64,000 nt of DNA from an uncultured delta proteobacterium. GTDB lineage: Bacteria > Myxococcota_A > Polyangia > Fen-1088. Of the stretch, positions 1-26,510 are shown in pieces (position 1 is the first letter of the stretch; each line of letters opens with the position of its first letter). The stretch spans positions 96,001 through 160,000 of the forward strand of contig CAVYGB010000001.1 of the NCBI GenBank assembly GCA_963767925.1, written 5' to 3'. Made by a program: the position numbers and the translations under genes. The notes below the pieces were generated by a model that was given only the letters and a program-made list of their open reading frames with translations, was not told the origin of the DNA and did not search any database.

Positions 1-610
1 CGAGGAGCAGGCGCCTGCCGCGTTCGAGACGCATCCCTTCGAGATGGCAGTGGCGCCCGCCGACGGCTTGATCGAGACACCGGGGGCCAATCCCCCGGCG
101 TCGGAGCCTTCCGACCCGGTTGCCGGGGTCGTTGTGGCGGTGGCTGAACCCGAGGTGATCGGGTTGGTCTGTGCGACGGCCGCGCCCGAGGAGATGGCGT
201 CGGCCGAAGCGGTGGCCGAACCGGAGGTGGTCGCGTCGGCGGACATCGCGGGGGAGGGGTTCGTGATCGTCGGGCAAGCGGCGGTGGTGGCTGTGCCGGT
301 GGTCGAGGGGAACGGGATCGCGGCGGCGTTCGTGTCGGCGGCGGCCATGGGGCACGTGGCGGCGGCTCGAGCGGAGTTTGCCCCCGCGCCGACCAGCGTG
401 GCCGAGATCCAGACGCAGCCGTTCGAGCGGGCGACAGCCGTGATCTGGCCCGAGCGCACGACCGGCGCGGAGCAGCTCCGGGCGGTGGGGATCCTGCCGA
501 TGGCCCGGCGGCTCGGTACGCCGGCCGCCCCCCGGCGGCCGGCCCCGGCGCCCCCACCCCTCACCGTGCGCTGGCTGCTGTCGAAGATCCGCCGCTGGGC
601 AGGTCTCTGA
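1..610 (+). CDS. Ala/Val/Glu/Pro-rich hypothetical protein, 5'-partial
   Basis: Frame is open from base 2 through the ATG at 44 to TGA at 610; low-complexity sequence ending in WLLSKIRRWAGL. Confidence 0.5.
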   Translation, partial: EEQAPAAFETHPFEMAVAPADGLIETPGANPPASEPSDPVAGVVVAVAEPEVIGLVCATAAPEEMASAEAVAEPEVVASADIAGEGFVIVGQAAVVAVPVVEGNGIAAAFVSAAAMGHVAAARAEFAPAPTSVAEIQTQPFERATAVIWPERTTGAEQLRAVGILPMARRLGTPAAPRRPAPAPPPLTVRWLLSKIRRWAGL

Positions 611-826
611 TCGGCGACCGCTCGCCCTTCGACGGCGAGCTCCCGCGCTCGAAGACGCGCACCCGACGCACAGTCAGAGGTGTCCGTTCCTCCAGAACCA
701 GCCCAGCGCGTGCAGCAGGTGGGTCTTGCCGAGGCCGCCCCCCCCGCCGTAGATGAGGAGATGAAAAACGGGCGAACCCGCGGTGGCTCACCCACCGGCG
801 GGACGCCCGTCCGCTCGCGGTGAGCG

Positions 827-1447
827 CTACTTCTTCGTGGGCTCGGCGGCGAGGTCGTCGAACTGGGCGACGGTGTCGTCCTTGACCCAGACGCCGACCT
901 TGCCGGTCTGGGCCAGGGTGGTGTCCTTGGCGTCGAACTGCTTCTTGCCGTCGACGCTGACGGTGATGGCCGTGCCGACGTGCTCGACGGTCAGGGTGTG
1001 CCAGGTGCCGGGCTTGATGGCGGTGGTGGCCACGCCGGCCAGCTTGCGGCGCTTGCCCCCCACGAAGACGTAGAGGTTGATGTTCTCCTCTTCGGGGTTT
1101 ATGCGGGCGACGTAGTAGTTGTCGGGATCCTGCAGGCGCCAGACGACGCCGGCGGCCTGGTAGCCGCCCGCCTGGGTCTTGATGCGGGCCGAGAGCTTGA
1201 GGTCCCCGAAGGCCTGGTCGCCGGCCACCGCCACGGTGTAGCGATCGTCGGTCTTGTCCTCCTGGGACAGGACGAGCCCCTTGCCGACGCTCTTGCCGTC
1301 GGCGCCGCTCGCCGGGCGGAGCACCCACTTGCCGACGGCGCCTTTCTCGGTAGCCGCAAAGGCGAATCCATTCGGCGGGCTGCCCGCCTTGCCGTCATCG
1401 AAACCCCAGCTCGCGGCGAAGAGCACCAGCGTCACAACCAAAGACAT
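827..1447 (-). CDS. Secreted DUF1080 / family-16 glycoside-hydrolase-like (concanavalin fold) protein
   Basis: AAGGAGG RBS before ATG at 1447; hydrophobic signal peptide; motifs AGVVWRLQDPDNYY, WHTLTVEHVG, GKVGVW, FDDL. Confidence 0.75.
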   Translation of the reverse strand: MSLVVTLVLFAASWGFDDGKAGSPPNGFAFAATEKGAVGKWVLRPASGADGKSVGKGLVLSQEDKTDDRYTVAVAGDQAFGDLKLSARIKTQAGGYQAAGVVWRLQDPDNYYVARINPEEENINLYVFVGGKRRKLAGVATTAIKPGTWHTLTVEHVGTAITVSVDGKKQFDAKDTTLAQTGKVGVWVKDDTVAQFDDLAAEPTKK

Positions 1448-1574
1448 GAAGAGCCTCCTTTTCGAGTCGTTCCGGGCGCGGGCCCGCCACTTCGAGGCCT
1501 GAATATGAATATTGGTTTCATCTAATGTCAACCCGCCGGGCATATCCAGGCGCCGGTGGGTGACGATCGGACGA

Positions 1575-2387
1575 TCAGAAGACCGCGCCGAAGCCGAGAT
1601 AAGCCAGCGCGCCAACGCGGGTATCGTTCTCGAGGCGCATGCGGATGGCCGAGAGGCCGCCGCCGCCGGTCACTGCGAATCGGCCGAAGGTCACGGTGGC
1701 GGCCGGGCCGGCCAGCAGCTCCCAGTCCGGCTCGCCCGCCGGCTCGTCGCTGTCGCGCTCGAGATCGATGCGGAAGCGGGAGTCGAGGCCCAGGCGCAGG
1801 TTGCCGGTGACCCGGTACAGCGCCGCCAGGCGCGTGTCGCCGTAGTGCTCGCCCTCCTCGAGGCCGAGCCCGTAGCCGGCGTTGCCGAGCAGGTAGAGGT
1901 CGCCGAAGCCGCGCCCGATGGCGACCAGGGCGCCCGCGGCCGGGACCGTGTTGAACCCGTGGGGCTCGTAGCCGGCCGACACGGCCAGATCGATGCCGTG
2001 GCGCTCCTGGCGGAGGGCGTCCAGCTTGGCGGAGACGATCGGCCGCATCTTGCCGTTGGGGCCGACGTAGCTGCCGCCCGCGCGAATCGACAGCGGGCCC
2101 AGCAGGCGCGCCTCGACAACGCTCTCGAAGGCGACCCCGCCCTTGGCGCCGTCGTAGCCGCCCAGGACGTGCGCGAGGCCGCCCTGGCGGTCGCTGCGCG
2201 CGGCCATGCTCCAGGGGGCCAGGCCGCCGCTGTCGGCGGTCCGCGCCGCGCTCGCCGGGCGGGCAGCGCCGTCGTCGCGGGCGAGCTGGGCCAGCGCCGG
2301 GGTCGCGCCGATCGCGATCAGACTTGTCAGGCCGGTCAGGCAGCCGGTGATCCACAGCGAAACGAAGCTTCGGTTTCTAGCGGTCAT
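1575..2387 (-). CDS. Secreted protein, probable outer-membrane beta-barrel
   Basis: Signal peptide ending ALA-Q; alternating amphipathic strands; C-terminal YLGFGAVF; GGGAG RBS. Confidence 0.55.
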   Translation of the reverse strand: MTARNRSFVSLWITGCLTGLTSLIAIGATPALAQLARDDGAARPASAARTADSGGLAPWSMAARSDRQGGLAHVLGGYDGAKGGVAFESVVEARLLGPLSIRAGGSYVGPNGKMRPIVSAKLDALRQERHGIDLAVSAGYEPHGFNTVPAAGALVAIGRGFGDLYLLGNAGYGLGLEEGEHYGDTRLAALYRVTGNLRLGLDSRFRIDLERDSDEPAGEPDWELLAGPAATVTFGRFAVTGGGGLSAIRMRLENDTRVGALAYLGFGAVF

Positions 2388-2699
2388 CGTTGGTCTCCCG
2401 TCGACGTGGTCTCCCGTCGGCCGGACCATAGCCCGGGGCGCCCCTCCGGTCAGCGCCGATCTCGACCGCGGAAAGGTTCCCCCGGGCGCCCCCAGGATCC
2501 CTCTGTGATCCCGGCCGGTCCTGGCCCTGGTCGCCGCTCGTAAGAAGAACCGGGCAAACCCGAGCGCCGGGCCGCGGCCGGGTCGGCCGGTGCCTACATT
2601 CGTGGCATGGGCAAGGAGGGTGGCGGTGGGGAGGGGGCGCGTGGCAATGGCGGTGGTGGGGGGACGGTCGGTCGTGGAGAAGACGCCGGCGACCGGGGC

Positions 2700-2875
2700 G
2701 CCCCGCGGACACGTCGTGTTGCCACCGCCAGATCCCAGGTTCGACGGGGTCATTGGCACGACCTACAAGGACTCCCAGCTGGGGGGACCTTCCCTGTCTC
2801 CAGGGCGCCGGAGGGCGCGCCGAACGTGCTGCTGGTGGTGATCGACGACCGCGGCTTTGGCGGCTTCGGTTGCCA
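2700..2875 (+). pseudogene. N-terminal fragment of an arylsulfatase (frameshifted, truncated)
   Basis: LPPPDPRFDGVIGTTYKDS followed, in another frame, by FPVSRAPEGAPNVLLVVIDDRGFG; the rest of the sulfatase is absent. Confidence 0.65.
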
Positions 2876-2895
2876 CCTCAGGCGTATAACTGAAT

Positions 2896-3573
2896 ATGCA
2901 AGTCAAAGTCAAGATTGGGCCAGCCCGGCGTCGTGCGTCGGGCGGCCTGCGGCTCGGGCCTCGCCGGTGGCTCGCGGGGGAGCGGGAATGCGGGCATACT
3001 GGTCGACCAGCCGTGTCACCGAACCGACGTGATCTCCTCGTCTCTCCCCTGAAGACAGTTGCCCTCCTGCTCGGGCTCACCCTGGCGTTCCTGCTGCCGG
3101 CGGCGTGCACCTCGCGGGCGCTGAAGAACAGCCGGAACTCGCGGAAGATGTTCATCGAGTCGATCCAGCGCGCGGGGCGGTCGCCGACGGGGGTGTTCGA
3201 CATGCGGGAGCTGCTCCCCTTCGCGTGGGATCGCTTCCTGGTGTTGCCGGCCAACGCCCACGCCGCAGAAGTGAACAGCAAGCTGGGGTTTCAGTGGGAC
3301 GACCTCAACAAGAGCCGCAGCCAGATCCTGCCGCAGTTCCTGCTGCTGGTGTTCGTAAAGGGGCAGAAGGTGGCGGCCTGGATAGATCTCGACCGCAACC
3401 GTTACAGCTTCGAGCCGTTCCTGGACCGGGGGTACGTCGCCCGCGCCGACTCGCTGTTCGACATCCGGGGCGCCGGACGGCGGCGGGTGGAGATCTCCCC
3501 GCGCCGCGGGACCTCCACCACGACCTCCTCGACCCCCCCGCCGCGAGAGCCGGCGCCGAGCGGCCCGCCCTGA
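2896..3573 (+). CDS. Hypothetical lipoprotein (true start probably later, about 3030-3050)
   Basis: Hydrophobic stretch ending in lipobox-like LPAAC; globular body FAWDRFLVL...FLLLVFVKGQKV. Confidence 0.5.
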   Translation: MQVKVKIGPARRRASGGLRLGPRRWLAGERECGHTGRPAVSPNRRDLLVSPLKTVALLLGLTLAFLLPAACTSRALKNSRNSRKMFIESIQRAGRSPTGVFDMRELLPFAWDRFLVLPANAHAAEVNSKLGFQWDDLNKSRSQILPQFLLLVFVKGQKVAAWIDLDRNRYSFEPFLDRGYVARADSLFDIRGAGRRRVEISPRRGTSTTTSSTPPPREPAPSGPP

Positions 3574-3791
3574 GGGGTGGGCGGCAGGGCGGGCGACGCG
3601 GGGCGGGTCTTAACCATATTGCGTCCCGGCGGGTCGGAGGAGGGACGTTCTGCCGACGTGAGCCCGTCGGTGCGTGCGCGGCGACGCCGACCCGCTCGGC
3701 GCGAAGCTGCGCGGGGGGTGAGATCCCCGCGAAACTCCTCGAAGCGACGCCGGGCCCGCGTTAAACACAAGAGCCCAGCGGCAGGCCCCCC

Positions 3792-4930
3792 ATGATCCTC
3801 ACAGCACAAACATCCAGAATCGCCGTCCTGCTCGCGGGGCTCCTGCTGTCGTCGTGTGGCAAGACCGAGGCGACCGGCGCGGCCGGTCGGGCCCGCCCGG
3901 ACGCCGCGGCCCGCTCGGTGAAGGTGGTGCGGGTCGAGGGTCGCGCCATGGAGCGCTTGCTGCAGGTGGTCGGCACGCTGTCGGCCCACGAGGAGGCCAC
4001 CGTCGCCGCCCAGGTGGCCGGGCAGATCGAGCGGGCGTATGTCGACGTGGGGGATCGGACCAAGGCCGGGACAGCGCATGGCCTCGATCGACACGAGCGC
4101 CTACCAGGCCCTGGTCCGCCAGGCGGCGGCCAACCTGGCCCGCGCCCAGGCCCGCGCCGACAACGTGCGAGCAGACGCTGCGCGCGGGTGCAGCAACTGC
4201 AGAAGGATCGCTTCGCCCCCGCCAGCGAGCTGGACCAGGCGGTGGCCGAGTCGGCCGCGGCCAGGGCCGAGGTCAAGTCGGCGGAGGCGGCCGCCGCCAT
4301 CGCCCGTCTCGAACCTCGAGCGATCGCAGGTCAAGGCCCCCTTCGACGGGGCGGTGGCCGAGCGCATCGCCAGCAGCGGGGACTACGTGGCGGTGGGCGC
4401 GCCGATCGTTTCGCCTCGTGCAGACCGATCCGCTGCGGCTGCGGCTGCAGGTGCCCGAGCGCGAGTCGCCGGCCGTGCGCCTGGGCCAGACGGTGCGGGT
4501 CACGATCGAGGGCGACGCCGAGATCCACCTCGGGCGGGTCACCCGCATCGCCCCCTCGATCCGGGAGAGCGATCGCGTCCTGCAGGTGGAGGCCGACATC
4601 CCCAACGAGGGCGGGCTGCGCGCCGGCCTGTTCGCCCGGGCGGAGGTCGTCATCAGCGATCAGGACCAGGCCATCAGCGTGCCGCCGCGGGCCCTGGTCA
4701 CCTTCGCCGGCCTCGAGAAGGTCGTCGTCGTCAAGGGCGGCAAGGCGACCGAGAAGACCGTCGTCACCGGGCGCCGGGGCGACGGCTGGGTGGAGATCGT
4801 CTCCGGGCTGGCCGCGGGCGACGTCGTCGCGATCGAGCCGGCCGGCCTGCGCACCGGGCAGCCGGTGCGGGCGATCGACACGCCGGCGCCGGGCGGCGGG
4901 GCCGGGGCCGGGGGCGAAGGCAGCTACTAG
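3792..4930 (+). CDS. RND efflux periplasmic adaptor (MFP) lipoprotein, several apparent frameshifts
   Basis: Lipobox LLSSC; VVGTL..EEATVAAQVAGQI..VDVGD, VKAPFDG and GLRAGLFARAEV motifs lie in different frames between about 4060 and 4420. Confidence 0.85.
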
Positions 4931-4951
4931 CCGACCGCGGAACGATAAGCG

Positions 4952-8148
<3,197 letters not shown>

Positions 8149-13923: not shown

Positions 13924-14020
13924 GGCAGCGGGTTGTCGGGCTGAATAGCGTTCCGGCTAGCCCTCGAGAGGGCAAACGGGCAGCGGGTTGTCGGGCTGAA
14001 TAGCGTCGCGGCTAGCCCTC
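13911..14020. repeat. Tandem duplication, 2 x 55 bp, including the sigma-factor stop codon
   Basis: GAGAGGGCAAACGGGCAGCGGGTTGTCGGGCTGAATAGCGT..CGGCTAGCCCTC occurs at 13911 and 13966. Confidence 0.9.
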
Positions 14021-15274
14021 GACCGAGGTGCTCAGGCGGGCGGCGTTGGTGAGGAGGTAGGTTCGTTCGGCGAGGCTGAGGGTGCGCTCGGCGGCCCGCC
14101 GGAAGAACGTGCTGGCGCCCGCCCGGTCGCCGGCCCGTTCCAGCAGGTGGGCCCGGACGGCGTCGAGGCGGTGGTTGCCGGCCAGGCGCGGGTCAGCCTC
14201 GAGGGTGTCGAGCAACGCCAGCCCGGCGGCCGGACCCTGGACCATGGCCACCGCGATGGCCCGGTTGAGCGCCACCAGCGGGTTGTCGGAGATGCGGCCG
14301 AGGACCTCGTACAGCGCCAGGATCTGCGGCCAGTCGGTCTTCTCGGCGCTCTCCCCCTCGTCGTGCACCGCCGCGATGGCTGCCTGGAGCTGGTAGGGGC
14401 CGACCGCTCCCCGGCGCAAGGTGGCGCTGATGAGGGCCACGCCCTCGGCGATGGCCGCCTGATCCCAGCGGGTCCGGTCCTGCTTGTCGAGCGGGATCAG
14501 CTCGCCGGCGGGCCCGGTGCGGGCCGTCCGGCGGGCGTCGGTCAGCAACATCAGCGCGAGCAGCCCGGCCACCTCCGTTTCGCCCGGGGCCAGCCGGTGC
14601 AGCAGGCGGATCAGGCGCAGCGCCTCGCTCGACAGGTCGGTCCGCACCAGCTCGGGCCCCCCGCTGACCGCGTACCCTTCGTTGAAGATGAGGTAGAGCA
14701 CGTGCAGCACGTCGGGCAGCCGGCTGGCCAGCACGGCCGGGCCGGGCATCTGGAAGGTCTCGCCCGACTCCTTGATGCTCGCCTTGGCCCGGCTGATCCG
14801 CTGGGCCATCGTCGCCTCGGGCACCAGGAAGGCCCGGGCGATCTCGGCGGTGGTCAGGCCGCCCACCGCGCGCAGGGTGAGGGCGATGGCCGAGGTCGAG
14901 GTGAGGGCCGGGTGGCAACACATGAAGAGCAGGTCGAGGGTGTCGTCACGCTGCTGGGCCCCCTCCGCGTCGGCGGCCAGGGCGACCTGCTCGTCGGCCG
15001 GCACCAGGCTGACCACCAGCTTCTCCCGGTGACGGCGGGCGCTCTCCGCCCGCACGTGGTCGGTGATGCGGCGGACGGCCACCTGGATCAGCCAGCCGCG
15101 CGGGTTGTCGGGCCGGCCCTCGCCCGGCCACTGGGAGGCCGCCGCGATCAGCGCCTCCTGGACCGCGTCCTCGCAGGCCGGGAAGTCCCGGTACCGGCGC
15201 AAGATCGTGCCCAGCACCTGCGGCGCGAGCTCGCGCAACAGGTGCTGGGTCCCGGCGTCGAGGGCAGGTGACAT
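14012..15274 (-). CDS. ECF sigma factor with long C-terminal extension (ECF42-like, DUF6596/TPR)
   Basis: EDAVQEAL, LLFMCCHPAL, GGLTTAEIARAFLVPEATMAQRISRAK and GPYQLQAAIAA motifs. Confidence 0.92.
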   Translation of the reverse strand: MSPALDAGTQHLLRELAPQVLGTILRRYRDFPACEDAVQEALIAAASQWPGEGRPDNPRGWLIQVAVRRITDHVRAESARRHREKLVVSLVPADEQVALAADAEGAQQRDDTLDLLFMCCHPALTSTSAIALTLRAVGGLTTAEIARAFLVPEATMAQRISRAKASIKESGETFQMPGPAVLASRLPDVLHVLYLIFNEGYAVSGGPELVRTDLSSEALRLIRLLHRLAPGETEVAGLLALMLLTDARRTARTGPAGELIPLDKQDRTRWDQAAIAEGVALISATLRRGAVGPYQLQAAIAAVHDEGESAEKTDWPQILALYEVLGRISDNPLVALNRAIAVAMVQGPAAGLALLDTLEADPRLAGNHRLDAVRAHLLERAGDRAGASTFFRRAAERTLSLAERTYLLTNAARLSTSVEG

Positions 15275-15330
15275 CGCGGCCGATCGCGCCTGGCGAAGTA
15301 GTCGGGTTCCCTCGCTTCGCTCGGCCCCGA

Positions 15331-15714
15331 CTAGGCCGGGGCGCTCATCACCTGCCGCACCTCGATCGCCAGGTACAGCGGTTGGCCGCCGGGGCCGGGG
15401 GCGGCCGAGGCCTCGGCGGCGATGGCGTAGGCCCGCTCGGGGCTGGGCACCTCGACGATCCAGTAGCCGGCCAGGTACTCCTTCGACTCGGGGAAGACGC
15501 CGTCGGTGATCGGCTTGCCCTCCTTGCTCCCGCGCACCAGCCGAGCCTGATCGGGGCCTGCCAGGCCCTCGGCGCCGACCAGCTCGCCGGCCGCCGACAG
15601 CTTGCCGGCGAAGCTCTTCATGAACTCGATGTGCCGGACCAGGTCCTCCTTCGGCCACTGCGCGACCTGGAAGGGGCCGCCGCCCGGGGTGTTCATCATC
15701 AGCATGTATTTCAT
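15331..15714 (-). CDS. YciI/DGPF-family protein
   Basis: MKYMLM start; TDGVFPESKEYLAGYW and IEVR motifs; typical ECF42 partner. Confidence 0.9.
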   Translation of the reverse strand: MKYMLMMNTPGGGPFQVAQWPKEDLVRHIEFMKSFAGKLSAAGELVGAEGLAGPDQARLVRGSKEGKPITDGVFPESKEYLAGYWIVEVPSPERAYAIAAEASAAPGPGGQPLYLAIEVRQVMSAPA

Positions 15715-16247: not shown

Positions 16248-18095
16248 ATGAACGAGAGTCTTCCTGTAACGAGAGGCCCTGTCGCCGCCTTGATGGCGAT
16301 TCCCGGTGCACGCGGGGGGGGCGGCACGGCCGGTGACGGGCGGGCGCGCGACGAAGGCGCCTTGCGACCCGGGACCCGCCTGCGGAGCTACCAGCTCGTC
16401 AACCGGCTGGCGATCGGCGCCACCTCCGAGGTCTGGCTCGCCAAGCTGACCGGCGCCCAGGGCTTCGAGAAGATCGTCGTGTTGAAGGTGATCGCGGCCG
16501 ATCCCGCCCGCCGGGGGGAGCTGGCCGATCTGCTCACCAACGAGGCCACCATCGGTGCGCGGCTGTACCACCCCGGCATCGTCCACCTGCTCGACTTTGC
16601 CCAGGCTGACGCCCGTTGCTTCATCTCCATGGAGCACCTCGACGGCGTGAACCTGCTGCAGGCGGCGGTGCGGCTGGGTGAGCTCGGGCAACGTTTTCCT
16701 CTGCCGCTGGTGGTCTATGTGGCTGGCCAGGTCTGCCGCGGCCTGCACTACGCCCACGAGCTGGCCGATTCGAAAGGTTCCCTCGGCTTTCTCCATCGCG
16801 GGATCAGCCCGGACAACGTGATGTTGTTGCGGTCGGGCGCGGTGAAGTTGATCGACTTCGGCGCCTCCCGCATGCGTTCGGTGCCGACCCCGCCCTCCAG
16901 CGTCGGGACCCAGACCCACTACGCCGCCCCCGAGCGGCTCAACGACCGGGAAGAGGATCGGCGCAGCGACATCTACTCGCTGGGCGTCGTCCTTTACCAG
17001 ATCCTGTGCGGGCAGCGCCCGTTCGAGGGCGACGACGACGTGGTGCGGGCCCGCGTGCTCGAGGGGCGCCCCGCCTCGCCCACCGACGTGGCGCCCGACC
17101 TGCCCGAGGGGATGGCGCAGGTGGTGCTGCGGGCGATGTCCCGCGACCCCGACAAGCGCCAGCCCACCGCCGAGGCGCTGTCCACCGACCTGCAGGCCGC
17201 CTACGAGGAGCACCTCGCCATCGCCCCCGACTCGGGCCACGACGAGCTGGAGCTGCGCATCGGCCTCAACCAGATCTTCGGCAACGGGCTCAACGGCGCC
17301 AACGAGGTGCCCGGGTCGATGCCCCTGCGGATCATCGCCCGCGCCACCAGCGCGGCGCGCTCGCTCGGCTCCGAGCCGGTGGCCCTCGCCCCCGCGGCCC
17401 CCATCGCCGCTCTTCCCCTGCTGGTGGGCGGGGACCCGCCGGCCGAGCCGGGCTGGACCCAGGACGACACGACCGAGCCCTGCTCGATGCCCCTGCCGGT
17501 CGAGGAGCCCGCTTCCTCCCCGCCGGCCCGCGCGCCCGGTCCCGGATCCATGCCGGGGGCGGTGCCCGAGCCCATCCCCACCCAGGAGTCGGCCCCCGTG
17601 CCGGTCTCGGCCCTGTTCGACGGGGGGACCTCGAGCGGCCGCCGCGTCCCCACGGTCTACTGGCTCAAGGACGAGGTGGGGGCCGACCTCACCGGGTCGG
17701 TCTTCGACGTGGCTCTCACCCGCGTGCGCGAGCCCTCGATCAACTTCGTTCCCCGGGAGATCTCCGGGTTCGGCGAGAAGTCCGGAGTGGCCGACATCTT
17801 CGCCATCCGCCGCCGGGGCGAGGCGGCCGAGAGCGGCCCCCGCCACCAGGCCTGGATCACCCCCGAGCCTCCCCCCACGGCCGCCTCGGCCGGGCCGGCG
17901 CCGCCGGCCCCCGAGGACCGCCGTACCCCCCGCCAGCTCGAGGCGGCGCGATGTTTCGATCGAGGGCTGGCCTTTCTCACCGACAAGCAGTACGGGCTCG
18001 CTCTCGACGAATGGGAACGCGCGATCGAGCTCGACCCGTACAACCGGACGTACCAGACAAACCTGAAGCGACTACGCGCGCGCCACAACAAATAG
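16248..18095 (+). CDS. Ser/Thr protein kinase-like protein (probable pseudokinase) with Pro-rich linker and C-terminal TPR
   Basis: VVLK, DFG, YAAPE and DIYSLG are present, but the catalytic loop reads HRGISPDN; C-terminal FDRGL..YGLALDEWERAIELDP TPR; start position uncertain. Confidence 0.85.
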   Translation: MNESLPVTRGPVAALMAIPGARGGGGTAGDGRARDEGALRPGTRLRSYQLVNRLAIGATSEVWLAKLTGAQGFEKIVVLKVIAADPARRGELADLLTNEATIGARLYHPGIVHLLDFAQADARCFISMEHLDGVNLLQAAVRLGELGQRFPLPLVVYVAGQVCRGLHYAHELADSKGSLGFLHRGISPDNVMLLRSGAVKLIDFGASRMRSVPTPPSSVGTQTHYAAPERLNDREEDRRSDIYSLGVVLYQILCGQRPFEGDDDVVRARVLEGRPASPTDVAPDLPEGMAQVVLRAMSRDPDKRQPTAEALSTDLQAAYEEHLAIAPDSGHDELELRIGLNQIFGNGLNGANEVPGSMPLRIIARATSAARSLGSEPVALAPAAPIAALPLLVGGDPPAEPGWTQDDTTEPCSMPLPVEEPASSPPARAPGPGSMPGAVPEPIPTQESAPVPVSALFDGGTSSGRRVPTVYWLKDEVGADLTGSVFDVALTRVREPSINFVPREISGFGEKSGVADIFAIRRRGEAAESGPRHQAWITPEPPPTAASAGPAPPAPEDRRTPRQLEAARCFDRGLAFLTDKQYGLALDEWERAIELDPYNRTYQTNLKRLRARHNK

Positions 18096-18122
18096 GCGCC
18101 GGGTCAAAGGACGGACACAATC

Positions 18123-18494
18123 ATGAGCACCAAGAGCGAAAAGATCAGCGAAGTCCTGCGGGGCCTTCGCACCAGCTCGCCGGAGGTCATCGGCGCCTGC
18201 GTGGTCAGCACCGAGGGCTTCATCGTCGCTTCGGTCGTCCCCAGCGAGATCGACGAGGACCTCATCGGCGGTATGGCGGCCTCTCTGCTCGGCGTCGGCG
18301 AGCGGATCGCGGCCGATCTGATGCGCTCGCAGATGGAGCAGGTCTACGTCCGCTCGCCCAAGGGGTACATCATCGTCAACGCCGTGGGTCCCGACGCCGC
18401 CCTGGTGTTGCTGGTGACCCGGGAGGCCAAGCTGGGGCTCATCTTCCTCGAGCTGAAGCGAACCACGGTCGAGCTGGTCAGGCACGTCGCATGA
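18123..18494 (+). CDS. Roadblock/LC7 (MglB-like) protein
   Basis: 123 aa; GACVVSTEGFIVAS, MAASLLGVGER and AKLGLIFLEL motifs. Confidence 0.9.
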   Translation: MSTKSEKISEVLRGLRTSSPEVIGACVVSTEGFIVASVVPSEIDEDLIGGMAASLLGVGERIAADLMRSQMEQVYVRSPKGYIIVNAVGPDAALVLLVTREAKLGLIFLELKRTTVELVRHVA

Positions 18495-19216
18495 TGGGAA
18501 GCGCCCGCGCCACGCTGCTGATGACGGGGTGCCTGGCTCTGGGACTGGCCGACGTCGCCGTGCTGAACCTGGTGCTGTTTCCCCGGGTCCGGCAGCAGGG
18601 CAAGGGACCGCCGCCCGCCCCGACCGAGCCGCTGCCCCGGGTGGTCCCGCGGCCGGCGCCGATGGTGGCCGCCACCCCCGCCCCCCTGCCCGATCCCGAG
18701 CCCGCCGCGGCGCCCGAGCCCGCTGCGGTCCCCGAGCCCGCCGCGGTCTTCGAGCCCGCCGCGGTCCCCGAGCCCGATCCCGTCGCCATCGCCGTCCCCG
18801 AACCTGCTCCGGCCCGCGCGCCGGCGGAGGCGCCTCCCGCGATCAACGAGCAGGTCCTCGCCCGCCTCGAGACCGAGGCGCCGCAGATCATCCTCTTCGA
18901 GACCAACCAGGCGCGCCTCGACCGCGAGGCGCAGGCCGCCATCGACCGCCTGGCCGCCCGGCTGACGGCGGTGCCGGCCACGGTGGTCCTGATCGAAGGC
19001 CACACCGACGTCCGGGGCCCCGAGACGGCCAACTACCGGCTCAGCCGGGCGCGTGCCCGGGCCGTCTTGCTCCGATTCACCGCCGAGGGAATCCCCCGCA
19101 GCCGCGTGGTGCTGCGGTCCTTCGGCTCGCGCCGCCCGGCCGCTAGCGGCAGCCACTCCGAGGCGCTGCGCCGCAACCGTCGGGTGGAGGTCTCCGTGCG
19201 GCGAGGGACTTCGTGA
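18491..19216 (+). CDS. OmpA-family peptidoglycan-binding protein with N-terminal TM segment and PEPAAV-repeat linker
   Basis: ATGA overlap with the roadblock stop; ILFETN, IEGHTD..G...NYRLSRARA and NRRVEV motifs. Confidence 0.88.
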   Translation: MMGSARATLLMTGCLALGLADVAVLNLVLFPRVRQQGKGPPPAPTEPLPRVVPRPAPMVAATPAPLPDPEPAAAPEPAAVPEPAAVFEPAAVPEPDPVAIAVPEPAPARAPAEAPPAINEQVLARLETEAPQIILFETNQARLDREAQAAIDRLAARLTAVPATVVLIEGHTDVRGPETANYRLSRARARAVLLRFTAEGIPRSRVVLRSFGSRRPAASGSHSEALRRNRRVEVSVRRGTS

Positions 19217-19220
19217 CATC

Positions 19221-20375
19221 ATGAACGCCACCAATCCGGTCATCGTGGTCTGGATCGCCTCTTTGATGGGGGCGCTGCTGTTCTTCGCCGCCGGCGCCTT
19301 CGCCGCCCGCCGGCGGGCCTACGCCGGCGGCCCGGTCGCTGGCCTGGGCGCGGTCAAGCGCAACACCCCGGTGCCCTCGGCGGCGGCGGGGGGCGTGTTC
19401 GATCAGCCCGCCCGCCCGCCGGTGCCCAACCTCGACGCCAAGATCGCCGCCATGGAGGCGGAGGCCACCCTGCTGCAGTCGGCCCTGGCCACCGCCCAGG
19501 AGCAGCTCAAGACCCGGGAGGGGGAGCTGCAGCGGTTCCGCCGGGCGCTCGAGGAGGTGCAGAGCCGCAGCGGCGAGGAGGCCGGGCGCTGGCACAGCGA
19601 GCGCGCCGACCTGGAGGACCGGGCCGCCCGGGTGCCCCGCCTCGAGGCCGAGCTCGAGCAGCGCCGTCAGGAGATCGCCCGCTGGCGTCAGGAGCTGCGG
19701 GAGGCGGAGGGCCAGCTCGCCCGCTCGCCCTCGGCCGAGACCGAGCAGACCCTGAAGCAGGACCTGGCCATCAAGGTGCAACTCTTGCGGGCCAACGAGC
19801 AGCGCCTCGTCCACCTCGAGGAGGAGAACGCCAAGCTCCGCCAGGACACCGGCGGGGCCGCCGGCGTGCGCGAGGAACGGGACCGGCTGCGCGCCGAGAA
19901 CGCCCAGCTCCGGGCCAAGGCCTTCGCCGGCCGCCCGGCCAGCAGCGGCTCGTCGATCCTGGGCGGCGGGGGGACGGTGCCCCTGCAGGCGCCGCCCAAG
20001 GGCGCCGGTCGGGGCCACCTGTTCCAGACCTTCGTCGAGCAGGTCAGCCGCATGGCCGACGTGCGCTGCGCGGTGGTGGCCGACGAGCTGGGCCTTGTCG
20101 TGGCCAGCCACGGCAGCCTCGGCGACGAGGTGGCGGCGGTGGGGGCCCTGCTCTCCCGGGCGGGCGGAAAGGCCATCGAGGTGCTACCCCTAAGAAATGT
20201 GCATCGGGTGACGGTCGAGGATGACCAGCGGATCATCCTGACCCTGAGACCCCTGCCGACCCGGGAAGGCCGGGACAGCGACCTCTCGTTGATCACGCTG
20301 GCGGTCGGCGTTGCTCCGGATCCCCAGGCACTCACAAAGCTCATCAACGAGGGTCCGCGCAACATTCTGACGTGA
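19221..20375 (+). CDS. Membrane-anchored coiled-coil protein with C-terminal Roadblock-like domain
   Basis: N-terminal TM; about 160 aa E/R/L/Q heptad region; C-terminal VRCAVVADELGLVVAS..DEVAAVGALL. Confidence 0.75.
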   Translation: MNATNPVIVVWIASLMGALLFFAAGAFAARRRAYAGGPVAGLGAVKRNTPVPSAAAGGVFDQPARPPVPNLDAKIAAMEAEATLLQSALATAQEQLKTREGELQRFRRALEEVQSRSGEEAGRWHSERADLEDRAARVPRLEAELEQRRQEIARWRQELREAEGQLARSPSAETEQTLKQDLAIKVQLLRANEQRLVHLEEENAKLRQDTGGAAGVREERDRLRAENAQLRAKAFAGRPASSGSSILGGGGTVPLQAPPKGAGRGHLFQTFVEQVSRMADVRCAVVADELGLVVASHGSLGDEVAAVGALLSRAGGKAIEVLPLRNVHRVTVEDDQRIILTLRPLPTREGRDSDLSLITLAVGVAPDPQALTKLINEGPRNILT

Positions 20376-20393
20376 TTGCCAAAGGAGTTACCA

Positions 20394-20909
20394 ATGCCAT
20401 TGCCAACCTCACCCGCCAACGCGATACCCTCGCTGGACGCGTCCGCCTACAAGGGCGTGGATGTCACCAACGCGCTCAATATCGTGCGCCCCACCCTGGG
20501 TGATCAAGCGGGCATCGCCCTCTACCGCCTGCTGCGCCTGGTGGCGCTGGAGGACATCATCGGGCGGGGCGCGGCGGGCACCGCCTACATCGCCGGCAAG
20601 AAGCTGGGGATCGCGCTGGGGCTGACCAAGCTGGAGGACTTCCTGGCCCTGTGCAACGCCCTCAAGATCGGGATCATCAAGGTCCCCGTCCTCAAGGCCG
20701 AGCAGATCCACATCGACGTGTACGAATGTGTGACCTGCTCGGGCATGAAGAAGGTGGGGCGGACCCTCTGCCACTTCGAGGGGGGCCTGATCGCCGGCGC
20801 GGTCGAGCACATCCTCAAGAAGCGGACCCGGGCCCACGAGATGACCTGCATCGGCGGCCTCGGCCACGAGGCCTGCGGCTTCGACCTGGAGTTCCGGGGA
20901 GCGGTTTGA
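20394..20909 (+). CDS. Stand-alone V4R (4-vinyl reductase) domain protein
   Basis: AAGGAG RBS; YECVTCSG..LCHFEGGLIAG..EMTCIG.G...CGF motif. Confidence 0.88.
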   Translation: MPLPTSPANAIPSLDASAYKGVDVTNALNIVRPTLGDQAGIALYRLLRLVALEDIIGRGAAGTAYIAGKKLGIALGLTKLEDFLALCNALKIGIIKVPVLKAEQIHIDVYECVTCSGMKKVGRTLCHFEGGLIAGAVEHILKKRTRAHEMTCIGGLGHEACGFDLEFRGAV

Positions 20910-21213: not shown

Positions 21214-21798
21214 TCACTGGGCCAGGGCCACCCGGATGACGATGCCGCCCATGACGTCGCCGAGCTTGAAGTCGGTGCGGGGGCTGTCGGGGTGGCCGTT
21301 GTGGCAGTCCACGCAGGCCTGCGAGACCGCCTTGTCCGGGTAGACGGCGGTGAAGTAGCGGGCCTCGCCCAGCACCTCGTCGGTGTAGTGGTTTGTCGCC
21401 TTCTGGGTCACCTCGGCCAGGCCGACCTTCTCCGCCTCGGTGCGGGGGCGGTTCTGCTTGTTGATGGGGTCGAGCGACAGCAGGCTGTAGGAGAAGTCCT
21501 TGGTCTTCTCGCGCACCCGCTCGGCCCCCATGCGGAACATCTGGGCGGGCAGGGGGAGGGTCTTCTCGTCCTTCCAGTGTTCGGTGGCCTTGAGGACCTT
21601 GTCCTCGTTCTGGAGGCGGTTGACCACCTCCTTTGTGTAAACCTCCCGGTCGGCCGACATCACGGCGTAGAGAGCGTCGGTGAAGGCGCGTTTGCGGGCG
21701 GCCTCGTCGGGCGGGGCGGGCGGGGGGGTGGCGCGGCAGGAGGAGCCCAGGAACGCCCCGGCCAGCAAGGCCGGTATAATCGAGTCGGTTGCTTTCAT
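21214..21798 (-). CDS. DUF3365 / Tll0287-like c-type heme lipoprotein
   Basis: Lipobox LGSSC; LPLPAQMFR, YSLLSLDPIN, CVDCH and GDVMGGIVI motifs. Confidence 0.85.
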   Translation of the reverse strand: MKATDSIIPALLAGAFLGSSCRATPPPAPPDEAARKRAFTDALYAVMSADREVYTKEVVNRLQNEDKVLKATEHWKDEKTLPLPAQMFRMGAERVREKTKDFSYSLLSLDPINKQNRPRTEAEKVGLAEVTQKATNHYTDEVLGEARYFTAVYPDKAVSQACVDCHNGHPDSPRTDFKLGDVMGGIVIRVALAQ

Positions 21799-21858
21799 CA
21801 GTCGTCGTCCTTCGCAAGGTGTCGGCACGGTAGCGGCTGGCGCCGGGGGGGGCCGGCG

Positions 21859-23250
21859 TCAGCGGGGAAGCTTGTCGATGAGGTCCATGCTGGTGACGGC
21901 GGGCGCCGGGCGGCCCTGGAAGTTGGTCTGCACCAGGGCGGGATCGGCCAGCGCGTCCAGGGAGAAGCTCGCGCCGTGGCAGTGGATGCAGACGTCTCGC
22001 CACATCCGGTCGCTGGGGCGGAGGTTGCCGTTCTGGTTGTGCTCGACCTTGATCACCTGGGCGCCGTCCTTCGTCACGAGCTGCCGGGGCAGGTGGCAGG
22101 TCGCGCAGGAGACGCCGGTGCCGGGCGCGGCCTCGTGCCGCTGCTCGTCCCGCCAGGCGTTGAAGTGGGCCGAGGTCCGGTAGGCTCGGGTGTGGCTGTC
22201 GTCGTGGCAGCCCTCGCAGGCGGTCACCGCGGCCTGCACCCGGTCGAAGCGGTGGGACCCGTGGCAGGTGGTGCAGCCGAGGGTGCGGGAGGCGCCCTCT
22301 TCCTTCGCCTGCGGCTTCATCGGGGCCCGGGCCAGGCTGGGGGACATGGCGCTGTGGCCGGCCACCAGCCGCATGCCGTGTTTGCCGTCCCGGAAGCCCA
22401 GCCGCTCGTCGCGGTGGCAGTTGGCGCAGACGGTGTCGTTGACCGTCCAGCTCCAGCTCGGGCTGGGGGCGTTGACGCCGGGGGCCCGGTCGCCGTCGAG
22501 GGGCCGCTCGTGGCAGCCGGTGCAGTTGACCTGGGCCCGGGCGTGGGCCGACGCCGTCCACTCGCTGATGCTGGCCATCATGCGGCCGTTCCACTGCTCG
22601 GGCTCCATCCCCTCGGGCCCTGGCTCGCTGCCCGAGGTGGCGGGAAAGTCGGGCGGGGGGGGGATGGCGGCGGCGACCGTGGGGGCCAGCACCACCGGCG
22701 GCAGCGGGACGCGGGGGTCGGCCCGCAGCTCGGGAGCGCCGCGGTCCTTGAGCAGGAAGTCGCGGTACAGGCCCCGGTTGTCGTGGTAGTTGTGGCAGCC
22801 GGCCGAGGCGCAGCCGGCGTCGTCGAAGGTGGCGTGGCTGGGGCGATCCTCGCGAACGTCGGCGTGGCAGGCGATGCAGAAGGTCTGCGGCTCGCTCACG
22901 CTGCCGCGAAGCCGGGCCTCGGCCCGGTGCTCGCGGTGGCAGGCCACGCAGGAGCGGGCGTCGACGTGGGTGAGCTGCAGGGCCCGCACCGGGTCGTCGA
23001 ACTTGGCGGGGGCGTGGCTGTCGTTGCGGGCGCGCAGCGATTCGCCGTGACAGCCCAGGCAGGAGGCCTCGCTGACCCCGCCGAAGGGGGTGTGGCAGGT
23101 GGCGCAGTCGTTCTCGATCTGGTGGTGCCCGTCCGAGGTGCGCCCGGGCAGGAACAGCGCCTGCTCGGCCCGCCAGTGGCGGTTGCCGGCGAAGCCGACC
23201 GGCGCGCAGAACAGCAGCCCGAAAAACAGTCGGCGGGGCCAGGTCCTCAT
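21859..23250 (-). CDS. Multiheme cytochrome c (10 CxxCH + 1 CX4CH)
   Basis: CATCH, CLGCH, CVACH, CIACH, CASAGCH, CTGCH, CANCH, CTTCH, CEGCH, CATCH, CIHCH; N-terminal hydrophobic segment. Confidence 0.92.
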   Translation of the reverse strand: MRTWPRRLFFGLLFCAPVGFAGNRHWRAEQALFLPGRTSDGHHQIENDCATCHTPFGGVSEASCLGCHGESLRARNDSHAPAKFDDPVRALQLTHVDARSCVACHREHRAEARLRGSVSEPQTFCIACHADVREDRPSHATFDDAGCASAGCHNYHDNRGLYRDFLLKDRGAPELRADPRVPLPPVVLAPTVAAAIPPPPDFPATSGSEPGPEGMEPEQWNGRMMASISEWTASAHARAQVNCTGCHERPLDGDRAPGVNAPSPSWSWTVNDTVCANCHRDERLGFRDGKHGMRLVAGHSAMSPSLARAPMKPQAKEEGASRTLGCTTCHGSHRFDRVQAAVTACEGCHDDSHTRAYRTSAHFNAWRDEQRHEAAPGTGVSCATCHLPRQLVTKDGAQVIKVEHNQNGNLRPSDRMWRDVCIHCHGASFSLDALADPALVQTNFQGRPAPAVTSMDLIDKLPR

Positions 23251-23257
23251 GGCGGGA

Positions 23258-23989
23258 TCAGAAGTAGTAAGAGGCGAGGACGTGCAATCCGATGAAGGCG
23301 ATCACCGGCCAGAACAGCAGGACGTGCAGCCGGCGGCCGATCTTGAGCCCCCGGTGGACGGGGGGGCTGCCCCCCATGGCGAGCGAGCAGTAGGCGCCGA
23401 GCACGCACAGCGCGAGAAAGAGGATCGACAGCCAGAGGTTCAGGTTGGCCCCCAGCCGCAGCCCCGTGTGCGAGACGAGCCCGGCGATGGCCAGGGTGCC
23501 CACCAGGGCGTGCACGGTTCGCCACAGCCAGAGCTGCTTGCTGCCGGCGCGCAGCTTGCGGGCCAGCGGCAGAAGCATGCCGATCACGAGCAGCCCCACC
23601 ATGGCGAAGCCGGTGATCTGCTGCTCGAGCGGTCGGCGCAGGAAGAACGCCCACTGGGTCAGCCAGTTGGGCTGGTAGATTTGCAGCAGCTCGCGGCCGC
23701 CGGCCGTGACCGCCACCAGGAGCAGCCCGAGGAGCCCCATCGCGCCCATCGCGCGATGACCGCGGGACCGGGTGGGCTTGCCGGTGGCGGCGCTCGGCTC
23801 GCGCTGGGCGGTGCGGGTTTGCCCTGGGCGCGCGGCGATCCTGATCCCGGACGCAGCCGTCGCCAGGGTCGGAACCGATTTGGTGGGGTTCGCCGACAAG
23901 GACACCTCTACCCGCTGAATCCGTCCCTTTTTCAAAGCCGGACGGGCTCGTTTCTTCGTCGATCGTGGAACGACAGGTACGCGTCGCAC
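23258..23989 (-). CDS. Polytopic membrane protein with His-bearing helices (cytochrome b-like); start uncertain, possibly about 23750
   Basis: WRTVHALVG, SHTGLRLGANLN, RLHVLLFWP and GLHVLASYYF motifs; ends 7 bp before the cytochrome start. Confidence 0.65.
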   Translation of the reverse strand: MRRVPVVPRSTKKRARPALKKGRIQRVEVSLSANPTKSVPTLATAASGIRIAARPGQTRTAQREPSAATGKPTRSRGHRAMGAMGLLGLLLVAVTAGGRELLQIYQPNWLTQWAFFLRRPLEQQITGFAMVGLLVIGMLLPLARKLRAGSKQLWLWRTVHALVGTLAIAGLVSHTGLRLGANLNLWLSILFLALCVLGAYCSLAMGGSPPVHRGLKIGRRLHVLLFWPVIAFIGLHVLASYYF

Positions 23990-25297: not shown

Positions 25298-25622
25298 GGC
25301 TCGACATGATGGCACGCCCCGCCACGCCGGTAGCGACGATCGTCGGGCGCGAAGGCGCGTCGGCGACGGGGGCTGGCGATCGCGGGCCCGCAGCGCAGAG
25401 TGGATGTGATGGAGGCCCCGATCGGACGGATTTGTCCTGGCCGCAACCGACAGTGTGGATGTGGATGTGGATGCGGATGTGGACGCCAGCCAGTCCCCTG
25501 GAACGCATCAGGCGGCCGCTGTCGGTGCCCGGCTCGCCCCCCTACTTCTTCCACTGACCGGGGAACCCCGAAGGGCGCCGACCTTGCCCCTATGTGTCAG
25601 ATGGCGCTATGCTTGGAGCCAG

Positions 25623-26051
25623 ATGGCACTGAGGAGCGCTGTCGATTTTCTCGGTGGCAGGCGTGTCATGGGCCATCGTGTCGAGGAGGTTCAGATCCGG
25701 GACGCTGTGCGGAAGGGCCTGCCCTACGCGGCGCTGGACGCTCTGGCGGAGGCGCTGGCCATGGGGCAAGGCGATCTCACTGACGTCGTGGGGCTCTCCC
25801 GGCGCACGACTGTGCGTCGCCGGAGTGAGGGCCAGCTCTCGCCCATCGAGTCGGACCGGCTGTACCGGGTGGCCCACATCGCGGAGTTGGCGGTCGAGAC
25901 CTTCGGCGGGTTGCGGGAGGCCCGCCTCTGGCTGAGCCGTCCGAACCGAGCGCTGGGCGGTGAGGTTCCGCTGCAGATGCTCGATACCGGGATCGGCGAG
26001 CAGCAGGTGAAAGAGGTTCTGCTGCGCCTCGGCCATGGGATCCATAGCTGA
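25623..26051 (+). CDS. Antitoxin, Xre/MbcA/ParS family
   Basis: VRKGLP, LSPIESDRLYR and ARLWLSRPNRALGGEVPLQML motifs. Confidence 0.9.
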   Translation: MALRSAVDFLGGRRVMGHRVEEVQIRDAVRKGLPYAALDALAEALAMGQGDLTDVVGLSRRTTVRRRSEGQLSPIESDRLYRVAHIAELAVETFGGLREARLWLSRPNRALGGEVPLQMLDTGIGEQQVKEVLLRLGHGIHS

Positions 26052-26510
26052 GTGCAGGTGTGGCGCATCCTGCGGCGACGGTACCTGCGCGAAGCGCTCA
26101 GCGGCCGCGGAGGCCTTGCCGTGGCAGGCCGCTGGCACAGCCGGGGCCGCCTCATTGTCTACGCATCGGAGTCACTGTCGCTGTCCGCGCTCGAGGTGCT
26201 GGTTCACACGGAGCCCGATGTGGTGCCGCCCGACCTGATGTCCGTGGTGATCAACATCCCCGACGACATCCGCATATCCACCATGCACCTCCGGACGCTG
26301 CCCGTCCGATGGCGGGGCCATCCAGCGCTCCGCTCGCTTCAGGTGCTGGGCAACCGGTGGCTAGACGCCCGCCGGACGGCGATTCTCCAGGTGCCGTCGG
26401 CCGTCATTCCCGGTGAGCGCAACTACCTGATCAATCCCTCCCACCCCGACGCCGGGCGCATCCGCGTCGTCGGTGCTGCGCGTTTCGCCTTCGACTCACG
26501 GTTGATCTAG
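26052..26510 (+). CDS. RES-domain toxin (NAD+-targeting family)
   Basis: VWRI, GRWHSRG..VYASES..ALEVLVH and VPSAVIPGERNYLINPSHP motifs; abuts the antitoxin stop. Confidence 0.92.
   Translation: MQVWRILRRRYLREALSGRGGLAVAGRWHSRGRLIVYASESLSLSALEVLVHTEPDVVPPDLMSVVINIPDDIRISTMHLRTLPVRWRGHPALRSLQVLGNRWLDARRTAILQVPSAVIPGERNYLINPSHPDAGRIRVVGAARFAFDSRLI

Follow-up and report, generated by a model that had tools for sequence, protein, structure and literature searches.

A cluster of five genes encoding a kinase-like protein (K), a Roadblock/LC7 protein (R), an OmpA-domain protein (O), a membrane-tethered coiled-coil protein (C) and a V4R protein (V) was analysed in a 64,000-nucleotide stretch of DNA, hereafter the window, from an uncultured delta proteobacterium (GTDB lineage Myxococcota_A, Polyangia, Fen-1088; GenBank assembly GCA_963767925.1, contig CAVYGB010000001.1, positions 96,001 to 160,000). 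The cluster is a real, conserved module and apparently an undescribed one. We read it, with moderate confidence, as a Roadblock signalling module that has no GTPase and is anchored in the cell envelope. Its features, numbered from the first letter of the window, are the following.

16248–18095, + strand: K, protein with a Hanks-type kinase domain and a tetratricopeptide repeat (TPR) (Pfam, motif columns in 30 orthologues, nearest homologues).
18123–18494, + strand: R, free Roadblock/LC7 protein of 123 amino acids (aa) (Pfam, alignments, profile against the PDB).
18491–19216, + strand: O, membrane helix, linker and OmpA-like domain (Pfam, hydropathy, an Asp found in 18/18 orthologues).
19221–20375, + strand: C, transmembrane (TM) helix, coiled-coil-like spacer and C-terminal Roadblock fold (hydropathy, alignment, AlphaFold2 (AF2), Foldseek).
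19968–20372, + strand: C-terminal Roadblock-fold domain of C (AF2 and Foldseek).
20394–20909, + strand: V, stand-alone V4R/DUF2507 protein of 171 aa (Pfam, identical database entry, alignment, model, Foldseek).

The genes are co-directional and spaced, in the order K-R-O-C-V, by 27, −4, 4 and 18 bp, the negative value being an ATGA overlap. These coordinates and the Pfam assignments agree with the gene arrangement and domain content given in an earlier note on this DNA, and the same holds for its statement that the operon lacks a GTPase and a histidine kinase, since Pfam detects neither in the cluster or its immediate flanks. The region has a G+C content of about 70% and the third-position GC is high in all five open reading frames (ORFs; 0.90–0.91 in four of them). 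No terminator-like sites were found within 16248–20909. The cluster is flanked upstream by a divergent gene for an extracytoplasmic function (ECF) sigma factor and downstream by a convergent operon, and is therefore a discrete unit. The most likely start codon of V is the ATG at 20394, located 8 nucleotides behind an AAAGGAG sequence; the identical 171-aa database entry (P0006) also begins there. An NCBIfam scan gave no match above any cut-off.

R is a Roadblock protein according to Pfam (Robl_LC7, 1.5e-13) and belongs to a distinct subfamily, with 50–82% identity across Myxococcota and Methylococcales and 20% identity to the MglB protein of the same genome. When its profile is compared to solved structures, the best match is a Thorarchaeota Roadblock (3.5e-25), followed by CvnB5 (3leq; 3e-10) and MglB (2.5e-4). 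The MglB of the same genome, which was left out when the profile was built for this comparison, scores 24 bits, placing R outside membership of the MglB clade. C has a single N-terminal TM helix followed by RRR and by a coiled-coil-like stretch of variable length (hydropathy and alignment). Because RRR follows the helix, the positive-inside rule would place what comes next, spacer and C-terminal domain alike, on the cytoplasmic side. Pfam reports only sub-threshold matches for the C-terminus (LAMTOR5, 3.2e-4; Robl_LC7, 7.5e-3). The last 135 residues, aligned with 36 homologues, were modelled by AF2 with a mean predicted local distance difference test (pLDDT) score of 90.6 and have the order alpha-beta-beta-alpha-beta-beta-beta. 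The best Foldseek match of this domain in the PDB is the Streptomyces avermitilis Roadblock/LC7 protein 3kye (TM-scores 0.66/0.72); further matches are Asgard Roadblocks, MglB (3t1s) and Ragulator p14/MP1. The second Roadblock domain suspected in the earlier note at the end of C thus models as a Roadblock fold. A complex prediction with R, the C domain and V as partner gave a score of 0.04 against a mark of 0.32, a result that counts neither for nor against an interaction.

V is assigned by Pfam to V4R (1.7e-13, 50.8 bits against a cut-off of 31) and to DUF2507, as it also is in the protein atlas. Its five cysteines are invariant in an alignment of 29 homologues. The sequence profile of V finds YslB (8.7e-8) and MJ1460 (2.9e-6); Foldseek matches of its model include the same two proteins, the phenol-sensor domains of PoxR, MopR and DmpR, TRAPPC3/Bet3 (TM-scores of about 0.4–0.5) and H-NOX. 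The model therefore falls in the V4R/PoxR/Bet3/H-NOX fold group, in line with the kinship to Bet3 put forward in the earlier note. Four cysteines hold a zinc ion beside the ligand cavity in PoxR and in Thorarchaeota TRAPPC3, according to the accessible part of PMC10933270, and by analogy with these two proteins the cysteines of V probably hold zinc.

O carries an OmpA domain at residues 135–230 (Pfam, 1.3e-17, 64.4 bits against a cut-off of 27.2). Its N-terminus is made of one hydrophobic helix and of a linker composed to 55% of Pro and Ala (hydropathy). A strict pattern for the wall-binding motif of OmpA was tried and discarded, as it matched only 4 of 18 O orthologues.

The kinase domain of K (Pkinase, residues 49–312) is recognized by Pfam at 8.1e-33, with 114.4 bits against a cut-off of 31.7. 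A long linker rich in Pro, Ala, Ser and Gly separates it from one C-terminal TPR (residues 568–599) whose score of 18.3 bits is under the 27-bit Pfam cut-off, and which, the kinase domain aside, is the most conserved part of K in the alignment of its nearest homologues. The linker (about 17450–17900 of the window) is otherwise variable and displays three short motifs conserved among orthologues, DD-x-TEPC-x-M, GSVFD and PD-[IV]-FA-x-RR, which may be docking motifs. In the K protein of the window HRG replaces HRD and the glycine loop is degenerate (IGATSEV), with the Lys, DFG and APE motifs kept. These changes make it a predicted pseudokinase, as had been claimed before. They were found together in the window alone among the 30 orthologues compared: the catalytic-loop Asp is kept in 29 of the 29 other loci, and GGMGEVW, Lys and DFG in nearly all of them, so that their K proteins are predicted to be active kinases. 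Of the 11 database homologues nearest to K, one has HRG (P0164), three have HRN (P0166–P0168) and seven the Asp, with two loop glycines lost in 9 of the 11. The pseudokinase state is therefore a trait of the small clade to which the window belongs, and the earlier claim stands for this copy but not for the module.

The conservation of the cluster was addressed by a scan of one genome per species, which found 56 V loci. By record title they belong to Kofleriaceae, Haliangiales, Polyangiales and other Myxococcota metagenome-assembled genomes and, outside Myxococcota, to Methylococcales, Accumulibacter, Gallionellaceae, Thiothrix and Acidithiobacillus. Six-frame translations were then tallied with a profile for each of the five proteins. 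The 57 sources so analysed comprised L005, the window and the 56 loci, with the exception of L060 and L061, in which the short V match stayed under threshold. All five genes are present within 7.5 kb in 27 of the 57 sources (25 of the 56 scanned loci, L005 and the window), and the gene set singled out in the earlier note is thus conserved in other genomes. Nine sources, all of Methylococcales type, have R and V only, with neighbours otherwise unconserved; ten have V alone; seven, from Myxococcota, are partial because of contig ends; three are exceptions (L009, L016, L038); and L007 has K and V with a distant OmpA match downstream, its contig also ending beside K. The order K-R-O-C is fixed while V takes one of three places: behind C (as in the window), ahead of K in the same orientation, or divergent from it. 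That linkage survives these rearrangements argues for a shared function. In the four loci with the divergent order (L012, L013, L017, L023) a gene for a class A penicillin-binding protein (Transgly and Transpeptidase domains) lies downstream of V.

Of 1073 candidate database homologues of V, 878 pass E ≤ 1e-3, and the 120 best of them are all at least 69% identical to it. Between Myxococcota and Methylococcales, V proteins share about 70% identity and R proteins about 47–59% (L024–L028, L043, L045), a high identity between distant phyla that suggests horizontal transfer of the R-V pair. A more distant V subfamily occurs in two other Myxococcota families in the arrangements O-V-R (L068) and O-V-R-R′-K (L071). 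The module is rare: at E ≤ 1e-20, V was found in 8 of the 401 genomes sampled from the phylum, and 3 of 41 near relatives have it. The three genomes with a strong V in the sample of 401 also hold the top-scoring R, and one further genome (G153) holds an R of that rank with no clear V.

Gene fusions and replacements provide a second line of evidence. Among the database relatives of K, five are Pkinase-TPR-V4R fusions (P0185, P0199, P0202, P0206 and P0212, the V4R part of P0212 being 51% identical to V over its full length) and one is a Pkinase-Roadblock fusion (P0177). In L009 the place of K is taken by a Response_reg-DUF4388(PATAN)-TPR protein whose TPR tail is 48% identical to that of K, and in L005 two PATAN response regulators and then a histidine kinase stand between V-R-O-C and K. 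The TPR tail is the likely docking piece, because it remains constant when kinase and receiver-PATAN parts are exchanged and is the best-conserved segment outside the kinase domain.

These data suggest the following mode of action. R would pair with the Roadblock domain of C to form a platform at the cytoplasmic face of the inner membrane, kept beside O, which would be bound to the wall. The TPR tail of K, or of the receiver-PATAN-TPR protein that replaces it, would dock on this platform along with V, and V would bind a small hydrophobic or redox-related ligand. The input signal may come from periplasmic multihaem cytochrome and haem-Cache proteins encoded next to the cluster. The output would be phosphorylation in most lineages, and scaffolding alone in the clade of the window, where the catalytic Asp and the glycine loop are lost.

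Several points weigh against the reading of the cluster as an envelope-anchored module without GTPase. The hidden Markov models of the tally were built from the same loci that they counted, the sources are related to one another, locus counts are not independent events, and there are the ten sources with V alone. The model of V is of moderate quality (pLDDT 74.2). Neither in L005 nor in 13 of the 25 complete loci did the available flanks yield the haem-protein neighbours, and a search of sequencing runs listed no RNA run; one soil DNA run shared a small part of the sequence words. Furthermore, a distant GTPase partner such as MglA is possible judging from the gene neighbourhoods, since relatives of R sit beside GTPases. 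In the lone-V genomes of five Proteobacteria an R-like Roadblock (34–41% identity) is encoded elsewhere in the genome; its gene comes after that of an ATP_bind_1/Ras-type small GTPase in L083, L084 and L085, and after one for a Pkinase joined to a GTPase-like region in L082, L086 being cut at the contig start. The co-occurrence of R-like proteins with a lone V (5 of 5 proteobacterial genomes) was discarded as weak, R-like proteins of that score being common (49 of 401 Myxococcota genomes). Myxococcota R-like genes adjoin MglA paralogues in L090 and L094; others adjoin kinase-TPR genes (L088, L092) or PATAN genes (L089).

It could accordingly be proposed that the R/C pair controls a GTPase whose gene lies elsewhere, the simplest candidate being the single MglA of the genome, and that the cluster is an accessory polarity or motility module similar to orphan MglB-like proteins. 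The neighbourhoods just described speak for this, as does the presence of mglBA: the genome (83.8% complete) has one MglA-family match, located beside mglB on contig 8 and thus off the window contig. Roadblock dimers are also a known platform of small GTPases (accessible text of PMC4316618 and PMC10933270). However, tblastn with this MglA gave no match at E < 0.05 in the 57 loci (776,433 bases), all 27 complete ones included, or in the window, and Pfam detected no GTPase family in the 39 proteins of five Myxococcota loci or in L005, L009, L016, L038, L068 and L071. The R profile matches MglB weakly, be it that of the genome (24 bits) or the solved structures (2.5e-4), and MglA already has MglB as its partner here. 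The Methylococcales genomes with the R-V pair (including that of L095) encode an ATP_bind_1/Ras-type GTPase elsewhere, and MglA was not found with this query in those of Methylobacter luteus and Methylomarinum, although the other small GTPase is present. For the ATP_bind_1/Ras-type GTPase only weak matches were obtained in two Myxococcota genomes with five genes and in the window genome, the latter being MglA itself. On balance we consider regulation of such a GTPase by the R/C pair unlikely. The absence of a GTPase noted earlier holds for the Myxococcota cluster loci searched and not for the distant R relatives, some of which do sit in GTPase operons; the cluster is therefore a GTPase-less branch of a wider and diverse family of Roadblock modules.

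The proteobacterial GTPase-Roadblock loci form an array of their own (unknown, unknown, small GTPase, 215-aa unknown, Roadblock, PAS, PhnD-like, coiled coil, BON/OmpA, coiled coil) for which no published description was found. It spans positions 3881–11803 of L083 and 3096–11094 of L085, and is partial in L084 (2637–6962) and L095 (8769–12483). The 215-aa protein between GTPase and Roadblock in L083 was examined as a possible Roadblock relative and rejected (hhalign probability 3.8%).

The genes downstream of V bear on the signal that the GTPase-less module may receive. Those concerned in the window are listed below.

21214–21828, − strand: Tll0287-like (haem-c Cache) protein with one CxxCH (Pfam, 1.6e-19).
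21859–23250, − strand: multihaem cytochrome c with 10 CxxCH (Pfam and CxxCH count).
23258–23989, − strand: DUF4079-like membrane protein with four hydrophobic helices (weak Pfam match, 0.0044; hydropathy).

Besides the window, 13 further non-duplicate loci have a Tll0287-like gene next to the cluster (L074 and L075 were dropped as repeats of L019 and L042), with all three gene orders represented. Homologues of the multihaem cytochrome, 42–45% identical, adjoin the cluster in L009, L012, L013, L017 and L023. The last four loci are colinear, with K-R-O-C followed by a Pyr_redox_2/BFD oxidoreductase, the multihaem cytochrome and Tll0287; the C gene overlaps at its end with the beginning of the oxidoreductase gene, and DUF4079 is the C-terminus of the oxidoreductase. 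The recurrence of genes for periplasmic haem proteins suggests an envelope or redox input. The role of a polarity landmark, advanced in the earlier note, finds no support here, as these neighbours point instead to envelope or redox signalling.

A stronger version of this idea is that the main task of the module would be to sense or control electron transfer through an envelope conduit made of the cytoplasmic Pyr_redox_2/BFD oxidoreductase, the DUF4079 membrane domain, the periplasmic multihaem cytochrome and the haem-Cache protein, with V as redox or ligand sensor. Besides the adjacency in the window and 13 loci and the colinearity in four, the relationship of the V4R fold to H-NOX haem sensors seen with Foldseek and the iron-sulphur proteins encoded between a V4R-like gene and R in L081 speak for it. 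The Tll0287 family is described as haem-c Cache domains, of which a stand-alone member has redox-type behaviour (accessible part of bioRxiv 10.64898/2026.02.01.703092). Against it stand the 13 of 25 complete loci whose flanks gave no haem genes and six scanned proteobacterial loci, two of them Methylococcales R-V loci, from which such genes are absent. Adjacency in related genomes may also be inherited synteny. We know of no biochemical link between the two sets of proteins, and regard control of such a conduit as the main task of the module as unlikely.

The L081 locus (G008:C255, positions 55–7304, from the family of the window) and L093 (G153:C545, from the same class) share an array with a PATAN-TPR or K-TPR gene, an ORF that weakly resembles V4R (hhalign E 6.8e-5, probability 63.5%) and later R and C. 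In L081, genes for NiFe-hydrogenase-small-subunit-like and 4Fe-4S proteins follow the V4R-like ORF and O lies between R and C. This array is again linked to redox proteins.

It might be speculated that Roadblock and V4R proteins form a true physical complex, a prokaryotic counterpart of the pairing of Roadblock or longin folds with the Bet3 fold found in TRAPP and in Asgard longin-TRAPPC3 fusions. The complex would be minimal in Methylococcales and elaborated in Myxococcota by addition of a tether, a wall anchor and a kinase, and the platform would work with or without a small GTPase. We attach little probability to this proposal in its full extent. Were it true, such platforms would predate eukaryotes and would not be confined to archaea.

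Within the envelope-anchored module that we favour, the membrane helix of O deserves attention. It has an Asp (D21) in 18 of 18 orthologues, within the motif G-x-x-D-[LV]-x-x-[LI]-[ND], which may mediate a helix-helix contact with C. The MotB/TolR/ExbD pattern likewise consists of one helix with an essential Asp and an OmpA-like domain behind it, and O could on these grounds be a stator subunit of this type, its Asp serving ion flow and the cluster being an energised envelope machine. NCBIfam does match O to MotB, MotD and MotS, but over the OmpA part only and with scores all far under the cut-offs. No multi-pass partner of the MotA/TolQ/ExbB type came up when the window flanks, L005 and five Myxococcota loci were scanned with Pfam, and O was for this reason not assigned to the stators, an identity that we hold to be very improbable. 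That the five genes are neighbours by chance, without functional link, is hardly credible given start and stop codons that overlap or lie at most 27 bp apart, a linkage kept through three rearranged orders, and the K-V and K-R domain fusions.

Bacterial Roadblock proteins are understood almost solely as partners of MglA-type GTPases. The cluster has in common with the MglA/MglB switch of Myxococcus and Thermus the presence of a Roadblock-fold protein (R by Pfam, the C domain by its Foldseek match to MglB) and a Ser/Thr/Tyr kinase gene close to the Roadblock gene, that of MasK lying next to mglBA. It differs from this switch by having no GTPase, two Roadblocks of which one is membrane-tethered, and V4R and OmpA partners, as well as by the 20% identity between R and MglB. 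Links between MglB homologues and PATAN are already in print (accessible text of PMC4316618). The actinobacterial conservon CvnA-D is likewise a membrane-associated signalling set around a Roadblock, and its CvnB5 (3leq) matches the R profile (3e-10); the CvnA-type histidine kinase, the DUF742 protein and the CvnD GTPase were not found in the cluster, which shares with the conservon the Roadblock only. The proteobacterial GTPase-Roadblock operon (L083, L085; core in L084) resembles the cluster in its R-like Roadblock, coiled coils and OmpA-domain protein. Unlike the cluster, it has its own small GTPase together with PAS and periplasmic-binding-type proteins, and V4R is encoded elsewhere in the genome. 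The neighbourhoods of group 1 Rup GTPases also combine coiled-coil and TM-OmpA proteins in a predicted envelope signalling set; they are built around the Rup GTPase, and no Roadblock or V4R is reported there in the accessible text (PMC4316618). Finally, the resemblance to the eukaryotic and Asgard Ragulator and TRAPP systems lies in the Roadblock folds that match p14/MP1, the V model that matches TRAPPC3/Bet3, and the R profile, whose best match among solved structures is a Thorarchaeota Roadblock. A longin-TRAPPC3 fusion exists in Heimdallarchaeota (accessible text of PMC10933270). Unlike these systems the cluster has no Rag/Rab GTPase or longin subunit, and the likeness is one of folds and gene pairing.

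No paper describing the five-gene architecture was found, in line with the earlier note, whose author knew of no characterised system of this kind; the supplementary neighbourhood tables of PMC4316618, which are not part of the text covered, might include members. The accessible parts of PMC10933270, PMC4316618 and bioRxiv 10.64898/2026.10.19.760177 contain no description of the cluster. In PMC4316618 328 "orphan" MglB homologues are counted, none of which is characterised according to the accessible text. The cluster gives one class of orphan Roadblock a defined set of partners (a V4R sensor, a tethered second Roadblock, a wall anchor and a kinase-TPR protein), and the fusion proteins point to functionally coupled parts whose interactions can be tested. 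It also presents one module with kinase, pseudokinase and receiver-PATAN inputs. The bacterial pairing of a Roadblock with a Bet3-fold protein bears on the origin of Ragulator- and TRAPP-like scaffolds. The isolates Methylobacter luteus IMV-B-3098 and Methylomicrobium sp. Wu6 bear the two-gene R-V form and are possible test organisms.

Further features of the window lie on either side of the cluster. No counterpart of the divergent gene upstream from K was detected next to the cluster in other loci.

14012–15658, − strand: ECF-type sigma factor with C-terminal DUF6596, divergent from K (Pfam).
25455–26051, + strand: 198-aa ORF preceding the RES-domain ORF.
26052–26510, + strand: RES-domain ORF (Pfam, 1.9e-28).

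The last two ORFs possibly form a toxin-antitoxin pair of the RES/Xre type.

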